From positions 53,134,001 through 53,198,000 of the forward strand of contig NC_135817.1 in the NCBI RefSeq assembly GCF_964213995.1: a DNA stretch of 64,000 bases, written 5' to 3'. Of this stretch, positions 1 to 54,689 are shown piece by piece. This DNA comes from Mustelus asterias (taxonomy: Eukaryota). The notes beneath the pieces are model-generated. The model was not told the origin of the DNA, made no database searches, and was given only the letters and a program-made list of their open reading frames with translations. Both the position numbers and the translations under genes were made by a program. Numbering within the stretch: the stretch's first letter is position 1; every line of letters begins with the position of its first letter.

Positions 1-1
1 T

Positions 2-2530
2 GGCCTGGGCCTCCTTCTCCACCGCTGAATGCCGAATTTCGGGACCTTGAAGGGTGCAGGAAAAAAACGCGACGGGCCTGCTTGCCTGGTTCAGTGTGGC
101 GGCCAGGGCGAAATCAGATGCATCACTTTCCACCTGAAAAGGGATGGATTCATCCACCGCGTGCATCGTGGCTTTCGCAATGTCGCTTTTCAAAGCCTTG
201 AAGGCCAATTGGGCCTCTGGCGTGAGCGGAAAAGTTGTGGACTTGATGAGCGGACGGGCTTTGTCCGCGTAGTTGGGGACCCACTGCGCATAATAAGAGA
301 AGAAGCCGAGGCATCTCCTTAGTGCTTTTGCGCTAGCGGGCAAGGGAAGTTCAGTAAGGGGGCGCATACGGTCTGGATCAGGGCCAATGACCCCGTTTTC
401 CACCACGTATTCCAGGATAGCTAACCTGCGCGTACGGAATACACACTTCTCCCTGTTATAGGTCAGATTCAGGCGAGACGCAGTGCGCAAAAGGTTCTGG
501 AGGTTTGTGTCATGGTCCTGCTGGTCATGGCCGCAGATGGTGACATTATCCAGGTACGGGAAGGTAGCCCGCAACCCGTTCTGGTCCACCATTCGGTCCA
601 TAGCACGCTGGAAGACCGAGACCCCATTGGTGACACCAAATGGAACCCTAAGAAACTGATACAGACGACCATCCGCCTCAAAAGCCGTGTATTGTCGGTC
701 CTCTGGGCGGATGGGGAGTTGGTGGTAGGCGGACTTAAGGTCTATGGTGGAGAACACCCGGTACTGCGCAATCTGATTGACCATATCAGATATGCGCGGG
801 AGAGGATACGCATCCAGCTGCGTATAACGATTAATGGTCTGACTGTAGTCGATGACCATCCGGGGTTTGTTCCCGCTTTTAACCACCACGACCTGTGCTC
901 TCCACGGACTAACGCTGGACTGTATGATCCCTTCTTTGAGGAGCCGCTGAACCTCAGATCTGATGAAGATCCGGTCTTCAGCCCTGTAACGCCTACTTTT
1001 AGTAGCGATGGGCTTGCAGCCTGGTACCAGATTCTTAAATAGAGAGGGTGTGGTGATCTTTAGTGTGGAAAGATTGCATGCGGGGCGCTTTGGACGATTT
1101 GGAGGCTGCGGCTGATTCCCTACTGCCAGCGAAGGGAGTGGCCCACCGTACTGTAGGATCACACTCTTCATGTGGACCATAAAGTTTAGTCCGAGGAGAA
1201 TTGGCGCGCAAAGATGCGGCAACACAAGGAGCCTGTATCGCTCGTAAATTGTGCCCTGCACCTCCAGAGTTACCACACAATGTCCTTGGATCGGTACAGA
1301 CCGGGACCGTGATGCCATAGAAATTGTCTGTTTGGCAGGTAGAACCCGGAGTCCACACCTCTTTGCAGTGTCAGGGTGAATAAAACTCTCGGTGCTCCCA
1401 CTGTCAAACAGACAATACACAGTACGACCATTTACCTTGATGGTCATCATTGAACAGTCAAGTCTGTGATGCTTAGCCTGGTCCAGGGTGATCGACGCCA
1501 CCGTTGGCCCTTGGACGTCACTGCAGGCAGCCGAGGTTGATGCTGAGGACCCCTGCTGGTCGCTCCTGGTCGTCGTCGACCAAGATGGCCGCCCCCATGA
1601 ATCGCACGTGGGTGAGGGCGCCAAGCGTAGCGACTCCTGGTGGTCATCCTCCTCCTCCGCCAGCCACAATGGCGTCGTCCTGGGCTCGCACGTGGTCGGA
1701 CCTCGTGGGTACTGCAACGCCGATGGAGATTGTCTCCGTTCTGGAGGGTCACAGGCTGCACTGCCGTTCTTGGGCTTCGATCTGCAGACTTTCGCGTAGT
1801 GCCCCTTTTTACCGCACTGACTGCAGATCACCGTTTTAGCTGGACACTGTTGCCGTGGATGCTTGGCTCCTCCGCAAAAATAGCACCGCGGGCCGCCTGG
1901 GGCTGCCGCCGTCGTCGGGTCGATATGGGAGCGCGAGCCCGTGGGGCGAGGAGGGATTTGTGACTGCTCCTGCCACGTTGTCTCCACGTGGTCTTCTGGA
2001 TACAGGGCCAAGCTTTTCGACGCCGCCTCCAGCATCTCAGCCATCTCCATCGCTTGGGTCAGGTTGAGATTCCCCTTCTCCAACAGCTTAAGCCGGATGT
2101 ACGAAGACCCGACCCCTGCTACAAACGCATCTCGGGCGAGGTCGTACATGTACTGCTCAGCCGACACAGCTTTGCAGTCGCAGCCCCTGGCAAGCTGCAA
2201 GAGCTCATTGGCGTAGTCCTCCATGGTTTCGCCCGACTGCCGACGTCGTGTAGCGAGGAGGTAACGAGCGTGGATCTCGTTGGGTGGTCTCGTGTATCGC
2301 TTTTTCAAGAGCTTGAGGGCCCTCAGGTAAGTGGTGGCCGCACGAATCGCGAGGTAGACAGTGTCGCTTACCCTCGCATGGAGGACCTGGAGTCTGTCGT
2401 TATCCGTAGTAACTGCTGCAGAGGCTGCCAGGTAGTCCTCGAAACACTTCAGCCAGTGGTCGAAGGTGTTAGAGGCGCCGACCGCACGTGGGTCAAGCGT
2501 CAGACGCTCTGGTTTCAGCATTTGCTCCAT
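2..2530 (-). CDS. Gypsy (Ty3/Metaviridae) LTR-retrotransposon gag-pol polyprotein, partial (runs off window start)
   Basis: ATG at 2530 (MEQMLKPERLTLDP..). Motifs: two Cys/His knuckles (CYFCGGAKHPRQQC, CSQCGKKGHYAKVC), protease LFDSGST (~1405), RT FPYLDNVT (~556), LRRCLGFFSYY (~322), RNase H PFQVESDASDF..RPVAFFSR. Protease and RT motifs checked as in frame with the ATG. Absent from the ORF track, consistent with no stop before the window edge. Confidence 0.93.
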   Translation of the reverse strand, partial: MEQMLKPERLTLDPRAVGASNTFDHWLKCFEDYLAASAAVTTDNDRLQVLHARVSDTVYLAIRAATTYLRALKLLKKRYTRPPNEIHARYLLATRRRQSGETMEDYANELLQLARGCDCKAVSAEQYMYDLARDAFVAGVGSSYIRLKLLEKGNLNLTQAMEMAEMLEAASKSLALYPEDHVETTWQEQSQIPPRPTGSRSHIDPTTAAAPGGPRCYFCGGAKHPRQQCPAKTVICSQCGKKGHYAKVCRSKPKNGSAACDPPERRQSPSALQYPRGPTTCEPRTTPLWLAEEEDDHQESLRLAPSPTCDSWGRPSWSTTTRSDQQGSSASTSAACSDVQGPTVASITLDQAKHHRLDCSMMTIKVNGRTVYCLFDSGSTESFIHPDTAKRCGLRVLPAKQTISMASRSRSVPIQGHCVVTLEVQGTIYERYRLLVLPHLCAPILLGLNFMVHMKSVILQYGGPLPSLAVGNQPQPPNRPKRPACNLSTLKITTPSLFKNLVPGCKPIATKSRRYRAEDRIFIRSEVQRLLKEGIIQSSVSPWRAQVVVVKSGNKPRMVIDYSQTINRYTQLDAYPLPRISDMVNQIAQYRVFSTIDLKSAYHQLPIRPEDRQYTAFEADGRLYQFLRVPFGVTNGVSVFQRAMDRMVDQNGLRATFPYLDNVTICGHDQQDHDTNLQNLLRTASRLNLTYNREKCVFRTRRLAILEYVVENGVIGPDPDRMRPLTELPLPASAKALRRCLGFFSYYAQWVPNYADKARPLIKSTTFPLTPEAQLAFKALKSDIAKATMHAVDESIPFQVESDASDFALAATLNQASRPVAFFSCTLQGPEIRHSAVEKEAQA

Positions 2531-2571
2531 ACTCTCTTTACTGTCGAGAGTTTCGTGTTTGTCAATAAAAT

Positions 2572-2889
2572 TGATGCGCGACAATCAAGCACGAAGTACA
2601 AGGCTTCAGCGATTGAAGGCTTTTATTGACAAACAATGGAACTATTTAAACACGAGTACACCATTCCAGACTGGAGGGGTCCCGCCTGAGCAGAGGGTCT
2701 TATACCTCTCCCAGGAGGCGGGGCCCGACCGGGATGTGCCATAACAGCATCCACCACAGGTATATTAATCCCACAGTGTAAACACCCTAGCCCAACAACA
2801 ACATTATAACAACCCCACAGTGTCAAAACCCTAACCCAACAGCAACATTGGAATAACCCCACAGTGGTAACCAACGATGGTTCACCACA
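2572..2889 (-). mobile_element. 5' LTR of the Gypsy element (~318 bp)
   Basis: On - strand begins TGTGGTGAAC and ends CGCGCATCA (TG..CA); TATAA at 2704-2700, AATAAA near 2627-2622; ~44-bp imperfect tandem repeats in U3 (~2780-2866); lies just upstream of the gag ATG. Confidence 0.85.
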
Positions 2890-3043
2890 GTACTTAAGTC
2901 ATTTTCATTGGGAGGAGTGATGCTGTTGCTTTTGTTCACACGTTTGTTCAATATTAGGAGTGCTGCTGGAGAGCTGGGTTCTCATATCAGTCACACACAC
3001 ATTCACTCTCTCTCACACACTATCTCTCAGACACACTCACTAT

Positions 3044-14564: not shown

Positions 14565-17486
14565 CTATCTATAGCCCTCAATCCCATTAAATCCCATGTA
14601 CTCATCCAGAAGTCTCTTAAAAGACCCCAACGAGTTTGCCTCCACCACCACCGACGTCAGCCGATTCCACTCACCCACCACCCTCTGAGTGAAAAACTTA
14701 CCCCTGACATCTCCTCTGTACCTACCCCCCAGCACCTTAAACCTGTGTCCTCTCGTAGCAACCATTTCAGCCCTTGGAAATAGCCTCTGAGAGTCTGCCC
14801 TATCCAGACCTCTCAACATCTTGTAAACCTCTATCAGGTCACCTCTCATCCTGCGTCTCTCCAGGAAGAAGAGACCAAGCTCCCTCAACCTATCCTCATA
14901 AGGCATGCCCCCCAATCCAGGCAACATCCTTGTAAATCTCCTCTGCACCCTTTCAATGGCTTCAACATCTTTCCTGTAATGAGGTGACCAGAACTGTGCG
15001 CAGTACTCCAAGTGGGGTCTAACCAGGGTCCTATAAAGCTGCAGCATTATCTCCCGACTCCTAAACTCAATCCCTCGATTAATGAAGGCTAGTACGCCGT
15101 ACGCCTTCTTGACCGCATCCTCCACCTGCGAGGCAGATTTAAGAGTCCTATGGACCCGGACCCCAAGGTCCTTCTGATCCTCTACACTGCTAAGAATGGT
15201 ACCCTTCATATTATACTGCTGCTTCATCCCATTGGATCTGCCAAAATGGATCACCACACACTTATCCGGGTTGAAGTCCATCTGCCACTTCTCCGCCCAG
15301 TCTTGCATTCTATCTATGTCTCGCTGCAACTTCTGACATCCCTCCAAACTATCCACAACACCACCTACCTTGGTGTCGTCAGCAAACTTACCAACCCATC
15401 CCTCCACTTCCTCATCCAGGTCATTTATGAAAATGACAAACAGCAAGGGTCCCAGAACAGATCCCTGGGGCACTCCACTGGTCACTGACCTCCATGCAGA
15501 GAAAGACCCCTCCACAGCCACTCTCTGCCTTCTGCAGGCAAGCCAGTTCTGGATCCACAAGGCAACAGCCCCTTGGATCCCATGCCCTCTCACTTTCTCA
15601 AGAAGTCTTGCATGGGGGACCTTATCGAACGCCTTGCTGAAGTCCATATAGACCACATCCACCGCTCTTCCTTCGTCAATGTGTTTGGTCACATTTTCAA
15701 AGAACTCAACCAGGCTCGTAAGGCACGACCTGCCCTTGACAAAACCGTGCTAACTACTTTTGATCATACTAAACTTCTCTAGATGATCATAAATCCTGTC
15801 TCTCAGGATCCTCTCCATCAACTTACCAACCACTGAGGTTAGACTCACCGGTCGGTAATTTCCCGGGCTGTCCCTGTTCCCTTTCTTGAATATAGGGACC
15901 ACATCTGCAATCCTCCAATCCTCCGGAACCTCTCCCGTCTTCATCGACGATGCAAAGATCATCGCCAAAGGCTCCGCAATCTCCTCCCTCGCCTCCCACA
16001 GTAACCTGGGGTACATCCCATCCGGTCCCGGCGACTTACCAACCTTGATGCCATTCAATAGTTCCAACACATCCTCTTTCTTTATGTCCACATGCTCGAT
16101 CCTTTCTGTCCACCGCAAACCAGCAGTACAACCACCCAGATCCCTTTCCACCGTGAATACCGAGGTAAAGTATTCATTAAGCAGCTCCGCCATTTCTAAC
16201 GGTTCCGCACAAACTTTTCCCCCTTCACCTTTTAAGGGTCCTATGCCTTCACATCTCATCCTTTTACTCTTGACATATTTGTAGAAAGCCTTGGGATTCT
16301 CCTTAATCTTACCCGCCAAGGCCTTCTCATGACCCCTTCTCGCTCTCCTAATTTCCTTCTTAAGCTCCTTCCTACATCCCGTATACTCCTCTAAATCCTT
16401 AACACCTCCTAGCTCTCTGAACCTTCTGTACGCCTCTCTTTTCTTATTCACCAGGTTCATCACAACCTTCGTGCACCACGGTTCCCGTACCCTACCAACA
16501 CCCCCCTGTCTCATCGGAACGTTGTCATGCAGAGCTCCAGACAAACATTCCTTGAAAATCCTCCACTTTCCTTCGGTACTTTTCCCCAAGAATGCCTCCT
16601 TCCAATTTACCCGTCTAATTTCCTCCCTGATGACACTGTATTTCCCTTTACTCCAGAGAAACACTTTCCTAGCCTGCCTGATCCTATCTCTTTCCAATGC
16701 TATCGTGAAGGAGATAGAATTATGATCGCTATCCCCAAGATGCTCACCCACCGAGAGATCCTCCACCTGTCCAGGTTCATTAGCCAGCACCAGATCAAGT
16801 ACAGCCTCTCCTCTAGTAGGCTTATCCATATACTGTGTCAGGAAACTCTCCTGGACACACCTAACAAACTCCTCTCCATCCAAACCCCTAGCCCTAGGGA
16901 TATTCCAATCTATGTTTGGGAAATTAAAATCTCCCATCACGACAACTCTGTTATTCCTACATCTCTCCAGGATCTGTTTCCCCATCTGCTCCTCAACATC
17001 TCTGTTACTATTGGGCGGCCTATAGAAAACACCCAGCAACGTTACCGACCCCTTCCTGTTCCTAACCTCCACCCACAGAGACTCCGTAGTCAATCCCTCC
17101 ACGGCGTCCACCTTCTCTACAGCCGTGACACTATCCCTGATCAACAGTGCCACTCCCCCCCCCTCTCTTGCCTCCCTCCCTGTCCTTCCTGAAACATCTA
17201 AAACCCGGCACCTGAAGCACCCAGTCCTGTCCCTGAGACATCCAAGTCTCCGTAATGGCCACCACATCACAATTCGAAGCAGCAATCCACGCTCTAAGCT
17301 CATCCACTTTATTCACTACACTCCTGGCATTAAAATAGACACATCTCAGACCTTCAGCCTGAGCACTTCCCTTCTCCATCACTCGTCTAACCTCCCTCTT
17401 ACCCTGTTTACATTCCTTATCTATTTGCGAGCTAACCTCCTCGCTCTCAGTCCCCTCATTTCGATTCCCTCCCCCCAATCTTTCTA
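14565..17486 (-). pseudogene. CR1 ORF2 (APE endonuclease + reverse transcriptase) with two lesions
   Basis: YFNARS, ITETW, GDFN, SDH (APE); GVPQGSVLGP, KFADD (RT). +1 frameshift in the C9 run 17155-17163 and TAG at 15752-15750 where CAG of SQHGF is expected. Confidence 0.92.
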
Positions 17487-18401
17487 GTTTAAAGTCTCTC
17501 CAGTAGCCTTAGCCAACCTTCCCGCCAGGATATTGGTCCCCCTGGGATTCAAGTGCCACCCGTCTTTTTTAAACAGGTCACACCTGCCCCTAAAGAGGTC
17601 CCAATGATCCAAGTACCCAAATCCTTGTCCCTTGCTCCAGTCCCTCAGCCACGCATTCATTCTCCACCGATTCCTGTTCTCACTCTCCCGCGGCACAGGC
17701 AGCAATCCCGAGATTACTACCTTTGCATTCCTCTTTCTCAGCTGTCTACCTAACTCCCTATATTCTCTTTTCATGACCCCTTCCCTCTTCCTACCTATGT
17801 CAGCAGTACCTATATGCATCACGACCTTCGGCTCCTCTCCCTCCCCCTTCAGGATTTCTGGGACTCGACCAGAGACATCCCGGACCCCTGCACCAGGGAG
17901 GCAAACCACCATCCGAGAGTCCCGTCTGTGTCCGCAAAAACGCCTATCTGACCCCCTCACCGTAGAGTCCCCAATTAGCACTACCCTCCTTTCCTTACCC
18001 TTTTGCACTACTGGGCCAGGCTCAGCTCCAGAGACACTGCCACCGCTGCTTCCCCCAGGTGGGCTGTCCACCCCAGTAGTACTCAGACAGGAGTACTTAT
18101 TATTAAGGGGCACATCCACCGGGGTGCTCACCATCAACCGAGCTTTCTCCTTCCTCACTGTTACCCAGTTACCCTCCTCCCGTGGTCCCGGTGTGACCAC
18201 CTGCCGATAGCTCCTGTCAATGACCTCCTCACTATCCCTAACCCGGCGAAGGTCCTCGAGCTGCAATTCCAGTTCCCTAACATGGTCCCTTAGGAACCGC
18301 AGCTCAACACACCCAGCACAGATATGGTCGTCCGGGAGGCTAGGAGCCTCCAGGACCTCCCACATCCTACATTGGGAACAACATACTGGCCTCACACTCA
18401 T
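17484..18401 (-). CDS. CR1 ORF1 protein (Cys-rich finger/coiled coil + SGNH/GDSL esterase-like domain)
   Basis: Uninterrupted ORF: CCSQC..CAGC, leucine-heptad segment, LIGDS, HIGTAD, DGWH; ends ..ETLN*. Confidence 0.9.
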   Translation of the reverse strand: MSVRPVCCSQCRMWEVLEAPSLPDDHICAGCVELRFLRDHVRELELQLEDLRRVRDSEEVIDRSYRQVVTPGPREEGNWVTVRKEKARLMVSTPVDVPLNNKYSCLSTTGVDSPPGGSSGGSVSGAEPGPVVQKGKERRVVLIGDSTVRGSDRRFCGHRRDSRMVVCLPGAGVRDVSGRVPEILKGEGEEPKVVMHIGTADIGRKREGVMKREYRELGRQLRKRNAKVVISGLLPVPRESENRNRWRMNAWLRDWSKGQGFGYLDHWDLFRGRCDLFKKDGWHLNPRGTNILAGRLAKATGETLN

Positions 18402-18589
18402 AATTGCCCCTTTAAACACACAGGGAAAAAAAAAAGTGAATGAAAATTTTAAACTTACCTTTCCTCCTCCTGTTTTCTCCAAAGCCCTGCTCTCACTGGG
18501 TCTTTTTTTTTAGGTTAGAGGAGGAGGGAGGGTGGGATACTCTACAAGTGTAGAGTATCGGGATTCCTCTCTGTTCCAATTTATTGGGA

Positions 18590-25282: not shown

Positions 25283-25780
25283 CTCTGGTCACCACACTAC
25301 CAGAAGGATGTGGAGGCTTTGGAGAGGGTACAGAAAAGATTTACCAGGATGTTGCCTGGTATGGAGGGCATTAGCTATGAGGGGAGGTTGGAGAAACTTG
25401 GTTTGTTCTCACTGGAACGACAGAGGTTGAGGGGTGACCTGATAGAAGTCCACAAGATTATGAGGGGCATGGACAGAGTGGATAGTCAGAAGCTTTTTCC
25501 CAGGGCGGAAGAGTCAATTATTAGGGGGCACGGGTTTAAGGTGCGAGGGGCAAGGTTTAAAGGAGATGTACAAGGCAAGTTTTTTACACAGAGAGTGGTG
25601 GGTGCCTGGAACCCGCTGCCGGGGGAGGTAATGGAAGCGGATACGATAGTGACTTTTAAGGGGCGTCTTGACAAATACATGAATAGGATGGGAATAGAGG
25701 GATGTGGTCCCCGGAAGGGTAGGGGGTTTTAGTTTAGACGGGCCTGTTCCTCTGCTGTAATTTGTTTTGTTCTTTGTTCT
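25283..25780 (+). mobile_element. CR1 ORF2 3' fragment
   Basis: ORF 25310-25732 ALERVQKRFTRMLPGM..FFTQRVVGAWN; T-rich tail. Confidence 0.9.
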
Positions 25781-25797
25781 TTTGTTTCTGAGTGACT

Positions 25798-28528
25798 GGG
25801 GCAGGGATTTAGTGACCACCCTCGTCATGGCCGCCAAATCTCGCAAGAGGCCAAAAATGGGATTTGTGCCAGCGAGCTTGCGATCACGATCTTCCCAGGC
25901 CCTCTCCGATGACGTGATCAATTTCACACTCAGGAAGGGTGCGAACCTGATTTGCATGAATTTGAATCTATTACCATGTGTTTAGCATGGTTAATCTCGC
26001 ATCTTCAGCCCTCGTGGAATCTTCACGCCAGTGCAAATTGCTACTGCTTTTTAAAAATGGAAACCAGGCGCCATAACCCCTGAGAGGGAGGAAGGAGTTA
26101 TAAATACGGGCTGTGGAGGGGCACAAACCCTGGAGGAACTGTCCTGGAGTCTTAAGTATAGAGGCAATGACAGCAATGAGATCTTGGAATGATGCCGCCT
26201 GGGTGAGAAGGGTGCCATTAGATTGTGCCCTCTAACATCCCTGAGACTCATGTTCATCAAACTCATTGGCCATCCTTAACAATATCAGCTGTCTACAGCC
26301 TCAAAGCCAAGGAAGAGGATGAGTACTCATGATTCAGGGTTCAACACTTGGTTGCACAGCATCAAGAGGCTTCTATGTCAGACCCCTATGCCTGCCATTC
26401 AGGAACCATTATTCCCAATGGGGTCATCACCGTCCAGTTTACCCTGCCCATTGGCGATGTGTGAGCATCTCACCCCCTGTCAAAACCACCAGTGTTAGAG
26501 AGCATAAGGTAGGGCAAAACTAGATGGGAGGCTCAGGGCGAGTCTAAGTGGGCAAGGGCATAGGCCAAAGCCAATCCTGTCCTGGAGATGGGACAGCAAT
26601 GGTCCCAAGGACTGACCAATGTTTCCGAGTTCTCCCATCATTGATCTGACCTCTTGCCCCAGGATTTCCACTGTGGACGCTACCATTGCACTGCTGGCCT
26701 GGGTGCCATGTAGTGCCAGCAAATTCTCCTGTGATAGAAGGCTTTGGGACGCATCCCACAGCAATCACAGGAATGTAGCTGACAGTCCCTTCTGCTTTTT
26801 CTGGCTCTGCCTTTGCATCTGCAGCTGCTGAGAGACAAACATGTTCGGTGACACAGCACCTGGCTGGGGCACAGCTGTGTCCTGCGATCCAGCAGACCTC
26901 CGACTGTCTGATCCCTAGGATGTTCCTGCTTCCACCTGATGTGCATCAGAAGCTGCGTGGTGCTCACCAGATAGTGACCCAGAAGCCTGCCTGCTAAGGT
27001 CACTGACCGAGGTGTGAGTCACTGCATGGTGGATGGTGCAGGTGATGGCTGTGACGCTTTATCTGTGTCCTCCTTTGAGGTTGTGTCGAGGGTAGATGGT
27101 GGGATACCATTGGTGGATGGGCCAGGCTCTTCAGGTGATGTTCCTGCATGGCAAAGGACGTGGTTTTAGTACATGGCCAGGGCAGCAGTCTGGGATACAC
27201 AGAACCCACTTGAGTTTGGCCATCTGGATGAAGGTGCAAGGGCTCCTCACTTTTGTCCCACAGGCACACCTCGGTCACAGTACAGGCCCACTCCTGCTCC
27301 TTCCCAGTAAACTCCAGGGCTCTCTCCTCAAAAGGAGGCAGCATTGCCCGCTCGGGGATCCCACCGCCCATCTTCTCTCACTTGCAGCAGTTGTGGGCAA
27401 GCTTCTCCTGCAGGAACACAAATGGGGATAATGTGAACTGGATGCCTGGTGGGTCAGAGTTTGATGAAACCTGCTCATAGGCAGGGAGGGGTCTGTGGAG
27501 GAGTGCCAGGGGTTGGGGGAGGGTTATTCATTTGTGGGACAAATCCTGTTTTTGGCCCCTTGCAAGATTTGACGTCCATGACGAGGGCGTCGCTATCTGG
27601 CCAGCATTTATTGCCCATCTCTAGTTGTCCTTGGAGGGTAGTTGAGAATGAACCATATTGCTGTGGCTCTGGAGTCACATGTAGGCCAAACCAGGTAAGG
27701 ATGGCAGATTTCCTTCCCTAAAGGACATTAGTGAACCAGATGGGTTTTCCTGACAATCGACAATGGTTTCATGGTCGTCAATAGATTCTTAATTCCAGAT
27801 ATTGTTTATTGAATTCAATTTCCACCATCTGCCACAGCAGGATTCGAACCTGGGTCTCCAGAACATTAGTGGAGTTTCTGGATTAATGGTCTAGCGATAA
27901 TGCGACTAGGCCATCGCTCTCTTGGATGCTTGTGGGAGGTTGGGTGCTGGGGCACTGCAAGGTGGCAGCAATGGGATCAAGGTGACAATGAGGGAAGTGA
28001 TGGAAGGGTGGAGTACAGAGAGGAGACAGGGAGAACTTACTCTGGCTGATCGGAGTAGGTCATTCACCTTTTTTTCTGAATTGCAAACCCGTCTCCTTGT
28101 GCAGACCATTGGCAGTGGCCAGTGTTGTGCCCGACCATGTCCCAGGTGCGACTCAGTACCTTGCTAGAGGGCCACCTGCCAGCCCAATGGTATATTGTAG
28201 CCCGCCTCTCCTCTAGGGCATACAGCATACTGGTGAGGGCCTTCTCCGTAAACCGAGGAGTTGGTTTCCTCCTGGATTCAATGAGAGCAAACGCTGTGGA
28301 GCCGCTTAAATATCAATACCCCCTTCATTGATGTGCTCAGATGACCCTCGGGGTGGGTGAATCAGATGCTTCATGTCTCAAGCGTGGCACTTTTCACGTG
28401 AGAAAAAAAATCTTCTAAGTGCCTGAAAATTGTGGCCTGGATTGCCCAGCCAGGGCCAGCGGGGAATTGCAGCGATTTTCTCGCCAAAAATGACACCTTG
28501 TCATTTTTTTGTTGGGAAAATTACACCC
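25798..28528 (-). mobile_element. Decayed Harbinger-type element carrying a Myb/SANT-like (NAIF1/MSANTD-type) gene remnant
   Basis: - strand PTPRFTEKALTSMLYALEERRATIY (~28260), KKVNDLLRSAR followed by a GTAAG donor (~28035), GGGIPERAMLPPFEERALE (~27350); GGG..CCC termini. Confidence 0.72.
27575..27913 (-). mobile_element. tRNA-derived SINE family 2 nested in the Harbinger element
   Basis: Reverse complement of the 11556 element including the TGGCCTAGT head and GGTTCGAATCC B-box. Confidence 0.8.
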
Positions 28529-31580: not shown

Positions 31581-34500
31581 CCCATAGAACATAGAACATT
31601 ACAGCGCAGTACAGGCCCTTTGGCCCTCGATGTTACGCCGACCTGTGAAACCAATCTAAAGCCCATCTAACCTACACTATTCCAATATCATCCATATGTT
31701 TATCCAATGACCATTTGAATGCCCTTAATGTTGGCAAGTCCACTACTGTTGCAGGCAGGGCATTCCACGCCCTTACTACTCTCTGAGTAAAGAACCTACA
31801 TCTGTCCAATATCTATCACCCCTCAATTTAAAGCTATGTACCCTCATGCTAGCCATCACCATCCGAGAAAAAAGGCTCTCACTATCCATCCTCTGATCAT
31901 CTTGAATGCCTCTATTAAGTCACCACTTAACCTTCTTCTCTCTAACGAAAACAGCCTCAAGTCCCTCAGCCTTTCCTCATAAGACCTTCCTACCATACCA
32001 GGCAACATCCTGGTAAATCTCCTCTGCACCCTTTCCAATGCTTCCACATCCTTCCTATAATGCGGTGACCAGAACTGTACGCAATACTCCAAGTGCGGCC
32101 GCACCAGAGTTTTGTACAGCTGCAACATGACCTCATGGCTCCGAAACTCAATCCCTCTACCAATAAAAGCTAACACTCCGTACACCTACTTAACAACCCT
32201 ATCAACCTGGGTGCCAACTTTCAGGGATCTATGCACATGGATACCGAGATCTCTCTGCTCATCCACACTACCAAATATCTTACCATTAGCCTAGTACTCT
32301 GTATTCCTGTTACTCCTTTCAAAGTGAATCACCTCACACTTTTCCGCATTAAACTCCATTTGCCACCTCTCAGCCCAACTCTGCAGTTTATCTATGTCCC
32401 TCTGTAACCTGCAACATCCTTCCGCACTGTCCACAACTCCACCGACTTTAGTGTCATCCGCAAATTTACTAACCCATCCTTCTACGCCCTCATCCAGGTC
32501 ATTTATAAAAATGACAAACAGCAGTGGCCCCAAAACAGATCCTTGCAGTACACCACTAGTAACTGAACTCCAGGATGAACATTTCCCATCAACCACCACC
32601 CTCTGTCTTCTTACAGCTAGCCACATTCTGATCCAAACCGCTAAATCACCCTCAATCCCATGCCTCCGTATCTTCTGCAATAGCTAACCGTGGGGAACCT
32701 TATCAAACGCTTTACTGAAATCCATATACACCACATCAACTGCTTTACCCTTATCCACCTCTTTGGTCACCTTCTCAAAGAACTCAATAAAGTTTGTGAG
32801 GCATGACCTACCCTTCACAAAACCATGTTGACTACCCCTCATCAAATTATTCCTTTCCAGATGATTATAAATCCTATCTCTTATAATCCTTTCCAAAACT
32901 TTGCCCACAACAGAAGTAAGGCTCACTGGTCTATAATTACCAGGGTTGTCTCTACTCCCCTTCTTGAACAAGGGGACAACATTTGCTGTCCTTCAGTCTT
33001 CTGGCACCATTCCTGTAGACAATGATGACAGAAAGATCAAAGCCAAAGGCTCTGCAATCTCCTCCCTAGCCTACCAGAGAATCCTAGGATAAATCCCATC
33101 CAGCCCAGGGGACTTATCTACTTTCACACTTTCCAGAACTGCTAACACCTCCTCCTTATGAACCTCAATCCCGTCGAGTCTAATAGCCTGTATCTCATTA
33201 TTCTCCTCGACAACATTGTCTTTTTCCTGTGTGAATACTGATGAAAAATATTCATTTAGCGCCTCTCCTATCTCTTCAGACTCCACGCACAACTTCCCAC
33301 TACTGTCCTTGACTGGCCCTAATCTTACCCTAGTCATTCTTTTATTCCTGACAAAGCTATAGAAAGCTTTAGGGTTTTCCTTGATCCTACCTGCCAAAGA
33401 CTTCTCATGTCCCCTCCTGGCTCTTCTTAGATCTCTGTGTCCTTCCTGGCTAACTTTTAACTCTCAAGCGCCCTAACTGAGCCTTCACGTCTCATCTTTA
33501 CATAAGTCTCCTTCTTCCTCTTCACAAGAGATTCAACTTCTTTGGTAAACCACGGTTCCCTTGCTCAACCACTTCCTCCCTGCCTGACAGGTACATACTT
33601 ATCAAGGACATGCAGTAACTGGTCCTTGAACAAGCTCCACATTTCAATTGTGCCCATCCCTTGCAGTTTCCTTCCACATCCTATGCATCCTAAATCTTGC
33701 CTAATCGCATCATAATTTCCTTTTCCCCAGTTATAACTCTTGCCCTGCGGTATATACGTATCCCTTTCCATCGCTAAAGTAAATGTAACCGAATTGTGGT
33801 CACTATCACCAAAGTGTTCACCTCCCTCCAAATCTAACACCTGGCCTGGTTCATCACCCAGTACCAAATCCAATGTGGCCTCGCCTCTTGTTGGCCTATC
33901 TACATACTGTGTCAGAAAACCCTCCTGCACACATTGGACAAAAACGGACCCATCTAAAGTACTCTAACTATAGCTTTTCCAGTCAATATTTGTAAAGTTA
34001 AAGTCCTCCATAACAACTACGCTGTTACTTTCGCTCCTATCCAGAATCATCTTTGCAATCCTTTCCTCTACATCTCTGGAACTTTTTGGAGGCCTATAGA
34101 AAACTCCCAACGGGGTGATCTCTCCTTTCCTGTTTCTAACCTCAGCCCATACTACCTCAGTAGACAAGTCCTCATCAAACATCGTTTCTGCCACCGTAAT
34201 ACTGTCCTTGACTAACAATGCCACACCTTCCCCCTCTTTTGCCAACTTCCCTGATCTTACTGAAACATCTACACCCTGGAACCTGCAACAACCATTCCTG
34301 TCCCTGCTGTATCCATGTCTCCGAAATGGCCACAACATCGAAGTCCCAGGTACCAACCCATGCTGCAAGTTCACCCACCTTATTCCGGATGCTCCTGGCG
34401 TTGAAGTAGACACACTTCAAACCACCTTCCTGCCTGCCAGTACACTCCTGCGACCTTGAAATCTTATTCATGACCTCACTACTCTCAACCTCCTGTACAC

Positions 34501-34994
34501 TGGAGCTACAATTCAGGTTCCCATGCCCCTGCTGAATTAGTTTAAACCTTCCCGAAGAGCATTGGCAAATTTCTCCCCCAGGATATTGGTACCCCTCTGG
34601 TTCAGGTGTAGACCATCCCGTTTGTAGAGGTCCCACCTACCCCAGAATGAGCCTCAATTATCCAGGTACCTGAATCCCTCCCTCCTGCACCATCCCTGTA
34701 GCCACGTGTTCAACTGCTCTCTCTCTCTATTCCTCTCCTCGCTAGCACATGGCACGGGTAACAAACCAGAGATAACAACTCTGTTTGTTCTAGCTCTAAG
34801 CTTCCACCCTAACTCCCTGAATTTCTGCCTTATATCCCCATCCCTTTTCCTAGCTATGTCTTTGGTGCCTATGTGGACCACGACTTGGGGCAGGTCCCCC
34901 TCCCCCTTGAGGATCCCAAAAACACGATCTGCGACATCACGGAGCCAGGCACCTGGGAGGCAACACACCAGCCGCGAGTCTCTCTCGTTCCCCT
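31581..34994 (-). mobile_element. 5'-truncated CR1 LINE (second family; 3' half of ORF1 + disrupted ORF2)
   Basis: SGNH-like ORF1 remnant (34654-34968), APE/RT fragments (YFNARS, SDHN, KFADD), (CTATGTT)n tail, 8-bp TSD ATAGATAA at 31573-31580 and 34995-35002. Confidence 0.93.
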
Positions 34995-52265: not shown

Positions 52266-53489
52266 CCCTATAACCGTTCTCATCTCCCCATGCATGTTTG
52301 CTTTAAGAGGAGGCAGGATGGAGGGCAAGGCGATACATAGCCGAGGTTGAGCTGAAGGTGGTGACGTGCACTTAAGGTAGAATGAATTTTCGCCTTAGAC
52401 TGTGTGGACGTTTTGTTGCTCTGGTACTCAGAGCCATTCCCTCGACTGGTACTGGTACATCCACAGATTGATGCAAAACATGTGAGTGAGAGGCAAACGG
52501 GCAAGCTGTGACCTCAGAGAGTGGAAGCTGGGATTCATGTCCCGGGAATCTTGGAGAAACCATTAACGTTAGGAGGGAGACCGGGTCTGGACACAGATCT
52601 GGAAAGGAGCTTGTACTGTTATTTGTGAAATAAATATTGAGGAAAACTGTTAAAAGTAACATCAGCTGGAAACAGGCACTAATATATCCCCATGAAGAAA
52701 TAGGAGTTCGTATGCAAACTTAAATTTTGTAAAATGTATATTAAAATAAAACATTTACTTATTTTTATGGGATCATTTTTATGGGATCATTTTCCTTTCT
52801 TTCCGTGGTTAACAATATTTTATTGATGAGACAGGAAGTGGCCTGTCAGTTTGGTGTGGACTGTGAAAGAGTGGGCAGGGAGATGAACACTGGTAGTCAA
52901 GGGACCAGGGTGGAAATAACCTGGAAAGGAGAGTGTTTGGGTTTGGAGACTGAAGCACAAACTGGCCAGAGAATGGTCTGGAGCACCGTGCAACACTATT
53001 GGGATGGTCACTGAGACCCAATACATAACTTCTCGCATTGTTGAAAGGTCCCTGGCAACCATCAGAGTGATCATACATAGACAATGAAAACAGAAAATGC
53101 TGGGTAAACTCAGTAGGTCTGGTATTTGTCAGGGACATTTTTATTTCAGATGTTCAGCATCCGCAGCACTTTGTGATCATTCGTTTCGTTTTCAGCTGTT
53201 TCCCAAAGACCAAAGTGAATTCTAGAGAGGGAATAAGATAAATCTGTTGGTTATTAATTGATCTTCCATGGTGGGCTGGGGGGGGGGGGGGGGGGGGGGG
53301 AGGGATGAACTGAGGCACTGTTGCACTCTTGACTCCTGACTAATCTCAGGATGTGCTTCCTCCTAGTCTGATTTAATGACCAATATTACATGGGTCTACA
53401 TTTAATTCCAGTTTCAGTTTCTGCAGGGTCTGGCCTTCTTACAGGTGCCTCACAACACCAGGTTAAAGTCCAACAGGTTTATTTGGCAG

Positions 53490-53526
53490 CACTAGCTTTC
53501 GGAGTCTCAAGCTCCTTCATCAGGTG
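53490..53526 (-). ncRNA. Minimal type-I hammerhead ribozyme motif (Penelope-associated)
   Basis: CAC-CUGAUGA-A-GGAG..CUCC-GAA-AGCU-A-GUG: core, stem II, palindromic stem III, stem I CAC/GUG. Confidence 0.75.
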
Positions 53527-53701
53527 AGTGAGGACTTGTGTTCACAAACAGGGCATATAAAGACACAAACTCAATTTACAAGATAATGGTTGGAATGCGA
53601 GTCAAGAGGCGAGTTACAGGCGAGTCAAGAGTTACAAGAAGATATCTTGTAAATTGAGTTTGTGTCTTTATATGCCCTGTTTGTGAACACAAGTCTTCAC
53701 T

Positions 53702-53738
53702 CACCTGATGAAGGAGCTTGAGACTCCGAAAGCTAATG
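53702..53738 (+). ncRNA. Minimal hammerhead motif on the host-gene sense strand (one stem I mismatch)
   Basis: CAC-CUGAUGA-A-GGAG CUUGAGA CUCC-GAA-AGCU-A-AUG. Confidence 0.65.
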
Positions 53739-54689
53739 CTGCCAAATAAACCTGTTGGACTTTAACCTGGTGTTGTGAGACTTCTTACTGTGGGGTACCC
53801 AGTCCAACGCCGGCATCTCCACATCTTCTTTCAGATGGCCATGTGGCTTCTCTTCTGCTAAACTTTCAGTTGCAATATAAACTCTTAAATCTAAATTATT
53901 AATTTAACGAAGCTAACATTTCCAGTCACAGCTTTTAAGTACTTAACGTTACTTCAAATTCCTCAATTTCCTGTTGCCACTGGATTGTTGCGTTTTTTCT
54001 GCTAGAAGTTGGTTAGCAAGCAAGTGCAGGGGAAGTCAGCAGATAATCCTACACTAAACATCTTGTCAGGAATGGAGATTGATGGATAAATAGATGCATA
54101 CCTGACCTGAGCTGCTACAGGATTACTACATTGGCATGCAGGAACTCTGAGCAGTTCACCATTGGGAAATCAAACACATTTCTACTAATTCTAGTATTTT
54201 ATTGCAGATCAGTTCTGCAACTGATAGGTAGTCCTATTTGGACTACCTGCCCCAAGTTAATAAAAGTTTAAGGGAAAGGGCAGTGTTGTGTGGATAAAAG
54301 AATGAATTCATTTCAATGCGGCTTGGAAGACCGCATTAGGATTTATCAGTTCTGTGTAAAAACTGAGCAACATTAATTGTCATATTGATTTTACTGTTTG
54401 ACTGTCCTGGATCCCTAGAAGCAGTTCAAAGCAGTTCATATGATTGACAAACATCATCTCAATAAAAACCTCACGCTTCTGATTTTACTTTTCCCTCGGA
54501 TATTTATTTTCTTATACTGGGCTTGCGCTTGGTGCATCCCATTACTGACAACCTGACTTAATCATTTAAAAAATATTTCTAGCATGTCTTAAAGGGCCAT
54601 ACTTTGCTGTCAAAATAATGGTGAGGATAGCAGTTTTCACTATTATGTGCAAAGATTATACCAGCTTCAGAAAATGTCAGATGTTGATT

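Follow-up and report, generated by a model that had tools for sequence, protein, structure and literature searches.

The locus raises the question of how an LTR retrotransposon that carries no tRNA-type primer-binding site (PBS) primes its reverse transcription. The window analysed here is a stretch of 64,000 nucleotides from Mustelus asterias (contig NC_135817.1, positions 53,134,001 to 53,198,000), which contains the 5′ part of a young, chromodomain-less Gypsy element of 4716 bp on its minus strand. Positions given below are those of the window, and the features of the element are read on the minus strand.

The element and its putative priming site

The LTRs of the element are 318 bp each and 97.8% alike. 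The 5′ LTR (2572..2889; TGTGGTG...CGCATCA) was delimited by comparison with the 3′ LTR, which lies outside the window (L031), and its 3′ end was confirmed in 10 full copies. A 5-bp target-site duplication (TSD), AGTAC (2890..2894), has its partner after the 3′ LTR, about 1.8 kb before the window start, and the PPT of the element is AAAGGAGGGGTGAA. The 5′ part of a single gag-pol ORF (1324 aa in total) occupies positions 1..2530, with the integrase beyond the window start. The domains of this ORF follow the Ty3/Gypsy order (PR, aa 363-451; RT, 551-700; RH, 795-896; IN, 922-1083), two zinc-knuckle-like motifs were spotted by eye, and the best PDB matches of the protein are Ty3. With this domain order, a TG..CA LTR pair, a PPT, and a short TSD, the element belongs to the Ty3/Gypsy LTR retrotransposons. 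The 40 scored matches in the genome, out of 1798 candidates, were 99-100% identical, and the nearest named proteins in the protein search were from sharks and rays.

Several other features were seen in the window. The RT catalytic motif of the element is YLDN, not YxDD (minus strand, ~547-558, residues ~662-665), and YLDN, YVDN, or YMDN occurs in 28 of the 31 family rows of the clade described below; no literature combining 'YLDN' with 'gypsy' was found. U3 (2760-2870) contains a repeat of ~44-47 bp whose copy number differs among family copies. Elsewhere, an inverted repeat with 137-nt arms, 99% complementary and spaced by 57 nt, lies at 53449-53779, and long minus-strand ORFs with 72-77% repeats at 14565-18509, 25284-25981, and 31890-34636 are probably LINE copies. 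Many SINE copies, which we take to be of the HE1 type, are spread over the whole window.

The LTR ends in ..GCGCATCA at 2572, and in all ten full copies, with the boundary set by the 3′ LTR, the LTR ends and the PBS starts at the same base and no TGG follows. This agrees with the earlier note, which had read the site as lacking a tRNA-type PBS and had proposed comparisons with the 3′ LTR and with tRNAs. An alternative LTR boundary exposing a TGG was excluded by the 3′-LTR comparison in full copies together with the 5-bp TSD. When compared with 65 tRNA sequences of only 14 types, the PBS matched over at most 8 nt in this family and 6-10 nt in ten families.

The PBS position instead holds TTTTATTGACAAACA (2556..2570), an exact 15-nt complement of the LTR segment TGTTTGTCAATAAAA (2621..2635), hereafter the arm, which includes AATAAA at 2627-2622 and would form the 3′ end of the inferred primer. 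All coordinates that had been claimed for this pairing are correct on the minus strand. The proposed primer geometry was likewise borne out; one spacer A (2571) separates the LTR end from the PBS. The 50-nt loop between the two strands (2571..2620) consists of the rest of R, U5, and the spacer A and would be the minus strong-stop template; GCCT (2617..2620) stands directly 3′ of the arm, with the inferred cleavage between 2621 and 2620.

The region 2680-2530 folds at -40.7 kcal/mol (z = -3.87), and none of 200 shuffles was as good. The inverted-repeat score of 15 compares with a best of 10 in 130 shuffled upstream regions. TGG-PBS Gypsy copies of the same genome (n = 7, two other families) scored 3-5, and clade representatives (n = 32 families) 11-19. 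No Rfam match was obtained at E up to 1.

Two further pairings were considered. A second complement, TCGTGTTT (2648..2655), pairs with 2560-2553 and overlaps the main one at 2556-2560 as had been noted; it is probably incidental because it is not visible in the sequences of other families. In addition, GTTCCAT (2636..2642) is complementary, with one G-U pair, to the gag start ATGGAGC at 2530-2524, and the helix may therefore extend across the start codon. The gag-start pairing score was 14.7 against 10.3 in control windows for 10 related families of this genome, while the 23 metagenome families gave no excess (9.0 vs 9.2 in controls).

Covariation of the arm and the PBS across a clade

An alignment of 67 protein relatives was used to fetch 80 metagenome and 6 MAG loci, the protein search having given 950 matches among 7988 scored candidates, and a diverged relative used as query yielded 47 more elements in this genome. 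The gag start could be placed in 57 of the 86 outside loci, and enough upstream sequence was present in 56, so that 104 loci were examined with the 47 elements of this genome and the window element. We kept 82 loci with a score of at least 11 and a pairing that starts one base after CA. Among the 22 dropped loci, 14 show a decayed form of the pairing by eye, and the other eight have deletions, heavier decay, a contig without LTR, or an uncertain gag start; no TGG site was noticed among them by eye. At 72% identity, the 82 loci group into 34 families, of which this genome supplied 10 and outside sources (metagenome or MAG) 24.

The 34 families have 34 distinct arm 13-mers. Nevertheless, positions 1-13 from the junction are Watson-Crick pairs between arm and PBS in 32-34 of the 34 families; pairing then falls to 28 at position 14, 21 at position 15, and 16 at position 16, and is at background beyond. 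The pairing spans 13-19 nt, with perfect runs of a median of 14 nt. Among 442 pairs, 435 are Watson-Crick, two are G-U, and five are mismatches, and neighbouring predicted U5 stems have 301 Watson-Crick and 53 G-U pairs of 354; these counts are biased by the filter (score of at least 11, best copy per family), which inflates the Watson-Crick share at positions 1-11. When arms were paired with the PBS of other families, none of 1122 combinations reached 13 of 13 (mean 8.2), whereas 29 of the 34 self pairs did (mean 12.8). The compensatory covariation that the earlier note had asked for was thus found, and the arm/PBS pairing is kept through free sequence change across the whole Gypsy clade.

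The pairing has a sharp limit at the primer end, as the next three positions, which lie inside the junction, are non-Watson-Crick in 33-34 of the 34 families. The spacer is A in 33 families, the loop measures 24-69 nt, and RCC directly follows the arm in 33. A stem starting at +1 (hairpin of at least 4 bp) is predicted in 16 families against 6.0 expected. AATAAA is present in the arm of 14 families and ATTAAA in that of 11; three of the nine families with neither have a hexamer downstream.

As separate observations, arm position 10 (window 2630) is G in 30 of the 34 families, the rest of the arm being variable, and at four loci (L156, L165, L171, and L127) the 5′ arm, the 3′ arm, and the PBS carry different subfamily variants (GCG/GCT). 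These mixed variants may record recombination between co-packaged RNAs.

In an RT-RH tree of 93 rows (a quick tree with midpoint root), 31 families and 12 named animal proteins formed one clade with an SH-aLRT of 100 and a stem of 1.02. All 16 chromodomain-bearing polyproteins and the tRNA-primed elements fall outside this clade (43 rows), and a chromodomain search of 16 proteins from within it found none at E up to 0.05. The named members, whose PBS was not seen, come from sharks and rays, cnidarians, a sea cucumber, insects, an isopod, and trichurid/trichinellid nematodes. Four clade members (L121, L122, L124, and L125) lie in contigs of bacterial MAGs, probably as host contamination. Because references for Tf1, sushi, Mag, and Cigr-1 are not among the rows of the tree, we leave the clade unnamed and only infer that self-priming arose in it independently of chromoviruses. 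The clade may well carry the name of a known metazoan Gypsy clade (Mag A/B/C, CsRN1, Cigr-1, MolGy1-16, PolGy) or a Repbase name. Its motif had no match in the five of six supplements of one survey that were covered (PMC6238403). IMG/VR contained no relative, ESM Atlas gave generic RT clusters only, and a PF24626 search of this genome gave integrase-before-RT Gypsy pieces and retrovirus-like integrases, with no usable chromovirus reference.

Predicted transcription start and aberrant inverted insertions

The LTR has a TATA box, GGTATAAGA (2698..2706, first T at 2704), a motif that all ten families of this genome carry 82-96 nt upstream of the arm end. In the window element it is followed after 32 nt by a motif-predicted Initiator (Inr), CCAGTCT (2668..2674), with its start A at 2672. 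A search of the interval 27-36 nt after TATA placed an Inr at 30-34 nt in 31 of 33 reference copies, and its distance to the arm end is 50-55 nt in 27 copies and 63-64 nt in four; it is 52 nt in the window element. The 24 outside families share no TATA, and the predicted primer length is limited to the families of this genome.

Three other observations were set aside. Two contigs that begin at the arm (L046 and L111) were discarded as start evidence, because they hold 77 and 55 nt of LTR and these lengths are typical assembler word sizes. A sequence resembling a splice acceptor (TTAG/TCAG before arm position 10) was not taken as one, since the A is found in only 21 of 34 families and is absent from the window family. 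The contigs of runs X1, X2, X4, and X5 show no start, end, or strand-changing joint and bear neither way.

If the plus strand copies the primer, rare error products are expected to read LTR end, A, and the complement of the arm and upstream LTR in place of the normal leader. Searches with junction patterns gave 1, 39, 9, 0, 24, and 18 matches, and the reversed-pattern controls gave 0. These matches, all from one assembly, represent 58 different loci, or 56 after removal of two duplicated segments. These 56 aberrant insertions, which read exactly in this way, are new here.

As classified by script, 38 insertions have an inverted arm that extends to the U3 start; in the others the arm runs past the PPT (five) or stops at the predicted start (four), inside R (four), or inside U3 (five). 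The five that pass the PPT run through U3 and the PPT into integrase. One locus scored as an internal stop (L264) actually reaches U3, three inverted arms (L295, L301, and L356) are interrupted by apparent later SINE insertions, and another (L345) jumps within the LTR. The internal stops that remain after these corrections are at 38, 31, 167, and 176 nt. Three of the start-site stops (L267, L316, and L335) end at 52 of 52 nt, and the fourth (L287) ends at 53, where 52 was predicted. The four continue into four different sequences, three of them through 4-6-nt microhomology, and L267 and L287 have 5-bp TSDs. Four of eight stops in a 3-nt window of about 150 have a P of about 1e-5; by hand calculation, P is about 1e-4 if all 13 are counted. 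All four belong to one sister family group, and the window family contributed a single insertion, L264, which is of the two-U3 form.

Among 14 two-U3 forms, 11 carry a TSD whose copies agree at 4-5 of 5 positions, and L264 has a TSD too, so that integrase likely inserted them. L264 (G000:C72:7885544-7888571, locus 1294-1882) is a 589-bp inverted two-LTR insertion of the window family in satellite DNA, with the TSD CTAAC; the two halves have different numbers of the U3 repeat and disagree at variant sites, and two templates are therefore likely. Truncated LTR starts fall within -4..+2 of the arm/RCC junction in six of 26 measurable cases (P about 1e-4), which would fit an untransferred strong-stop end, and nicking at the hairpin base could also produce them.

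The start-site stops appear to map the RNA 5′ end, and a covalent primer is not proven by them. Taken with TATA and Inr, these four stops make it likely that the arm lies ~37 nt from the RNA 5′ end and that the primer measures ~52 nt. The earlier note had placed the arm ~35-50 nt downstream of a TATA-predicted start, and this position is backed by TATA in 10 of 10 families and by the four insertion ends.

Priming models and known self-priming systems

We consider it probable that reverse transcription of the element is primed by a capped fragment of ~52 nt from the 5′ end of its own RNA (2621..2672, as deduced from the Inr and the insertions). Transcription would start at the Inr (2672), and the arm would anneal to the PBS. 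Cleavage at the junction of the arm with the conserved RCC stem would free a 3′-OH; the cutting enzyme, by analogy with Tf1, would be the element's own RNase H. RT would then copy the A, U5, and the short rest of R and jump to the 3′ R. The plus strand would later copy the primer and overwrite the PBS with a Watson-Crick copy of the arm; such rewriting in each cycle would explain the tight covariation. Sometimes the plus strand would run on to the cap or anneal to another LTR copy, yielding the inverted insertions. As the poly(A) signal is usually part of the arm, this helix would also conceal it, in the 5′ LTR only. The conserved complementarity, the primer geometry, and the arm position support the earlier proposal of a self-priming variant that differs from Tf1.

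Some points weigh against the long 5′ fragment. A plus strand with a short tail could anneal to the arm of a different RNA and would then likewise run off at the cap. The long-primer reading also leaves unexplained how an unpaired tail of ~37 nt is avoided in normal second-strand transfer. Most inverted arms (the 38 that reach the U3 start and the five past the PPT) are also predicted if the 3′ end of the genomic RNA is the primer. In that case the 3′-LTR arm, annealed to the PBS, would be cut or trimmed to ..AAUAAAA-3′. The whole RNA would then be the primer, with the R upstream of the arm available for strand transfer and RNase H trimming the duplex to 13-19 nt. Such priming accounts for an arm 35-50 nt inside R, for a pairing of only 13-19 nt with no tail to be removed, and for the five insertions that continue into integrase. 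However, it gives no reason for the four stops at the transcription start, and runs past the PPT also arise if the plus-strand tail anneals to the 3′ R. No poly(A)-tailed copy ending at the arm was found, a weak negative that also bears on the earlier suggestion that an RNA simply ending in ..CAAUAAAA-3′ is the primer. An RNA ending at the arm is less favoured because a 5′ fragment agrees better with the stops at the transcription start, and we regard priming by the RNA 3′ end as unlikely.

Improbable, too, is plain Tf1-type priming, in which a packaged RNA from a second start at or just before the arm would be primed by its first 14-17 nt. The perfect runs with their median of 14 nt would suit such a primer, an Inr-like TCCATT lies at 2640-2635, and five of the 34 families have a BBCABW match with its A 17-18 nt from the arm end. 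Tf2 uses alternative starts according to the accessible part of one report (PMC5341516), and the TATA-less invertebrate families may prime in this way. Inr motifs at the arm are, however, not enriched over other 10-nt bins. A start at the arm is further weakened by the TATA and Inr conserved 50-64 nt upstream in the families of this genome and by the insertions, which copy far beyond the arm and in four cases end at the upstream Inr.

It is very unlikely that the helix only masks the 5′-LTR poly(A) signal, or the gag AUG, and that another RNA or a protein primes. In HIV-1, the AAUAAA is hidden in a 5′-end stem, the poly(A) hairpin, which limits premature polyadenylation; there the primer is tRNA-Lys3 and the stem lies inside R-U5, whereas here the partner strand is the PBS itself. 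Masking is favoured by the AATAAA or ATTAAA in 25 of 34 arms, by a complement present only behind the 5′ LTR, and by the possible AUG pairing in the families of this genome. On the other hand, masking needs neither the one-base LTR spacing nor the scarcity of G-U pairs, and no alternative primer site remains. The masking that the earlier note had raised is plausible as a second role; it is not the whole story because nine of 34 arms have neither hexamer and are still paired, three of them in families that carry a hexamer downstream. Finally, priming by a tRNA or tRNA fragment with the complement as a side effect is scarcely credible, for there is no TGG, the matches among the 14 tRNA types compared are short, and the PBS differs in every family and tracks the LTR instead of a fixed host RNA.

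The most far-reaching reading, to which we give an even chance, is that of an animal-wide Gypsy clade with independent self-priming, in which a long capped 5′ primer would end in the poly(A) signal, one helix would prime, mask, and re-template the PBS, and errors would leave a new class of inverted-LTR insertions from which the start and the cut could be mapped by genome sequence alone.

To our knowledge, Tf1 of fission yeast is the only element for which self-priming has been demonstrated, and predictions concern mainly chromoviruses and one plant copia lineage. In the accessible text of the work on Tf1, base pairing with the PBS involves the first 11 bases and the RNase H cut falls between bases 11 and 12 (PMC7175516), a three-duplex structure is required (PMC10085805), and about half of the cDNA keeps a copied PBS tail (PMC11042837), so that primer cleavage and primer copying into cDNA both have a precedent (PMC7175516, PMC11042837). 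As far as those sources extend, the present element shares the Ty3/Gypsy domain order with Tf1/Tf2 (S. pombe), Tj1 (S. japonicus), and the Tf1/sushi chromoviruses (PMC7175516, PMC10085805, PMC11042837, PMC4600332). It also shares with the Tf1/sushi group a PBS complementary to its own R region, a primer 3′ end that would abut the LTR end, a further predicted duplex that begins right after the primer, and probable copying of the primer into cDNA. A duplex downstream of the PBS, the third of the Tf1 'pretzel', showed no excess here (4.6 vs 4.8 nt).

In contrast to Tf1/sushi, the present clade is chromodomain-less (0 of 16) and forms a separate RT clade in a tree whose rows do not include Tf1 and sushi. 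The complement usually overlaps the poly(A) signal, and most members have a YLDN-type RT motif. Unlike in Tf1, where the first 11 nt pair, the complement here likely ends ~52 nt from the cap, as judged from motifs and insertions. The element thus probably works like Tf1 in self-priming and is not a member of Tf1/sushi.

Self-priming was also predicted from PBS/LTR complementarity for the TAR lineage of plant Ty1/copia elements (Houba, Osr-1) and plant Tcn1 chromoviruses, which in the accessible text implies that it arose more than once (PMC6317226); those elements belong to another superfamily or clade and are found in plants. The fungal GalEa Copia elements with their 'conserved hairpin site' and bivalve TRIMs resemble the present clade in having a hairpin at the PBS position and no tRNA PBS, but, as described in the accessible parts of both papers, the LTR there precedes both arms, whose sequence is conserved (PMC5445492, PMC6934838), whereas here one arm lies inside the LTR and the sequence varies freely. 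Within the accessible text of 13 articles (PMC6934838, PMC3601003, PMC6317226, PMC4600332, PMC6238403, PMC8556966, PMC11042837, PMC7175516, PMC10085805, PMC5341516, PMC3670739, PMC10680173, and PMC5445492), self-priming appears only for Tf1/sushi-type elements, Tcn1, and TAR, and for no chromodomain-less animal Gypsy clade.

Self-priming elements would escape tRNA-fragment control and go unnoticed in annotation that relies on the PBS. If true, a long capped primer that overlaps the poly(A) signal would widen the capabilities of RT-RNase H on RNA duplexes, and the inverted insertions supply exact, testable coordinates for the start and the cut.
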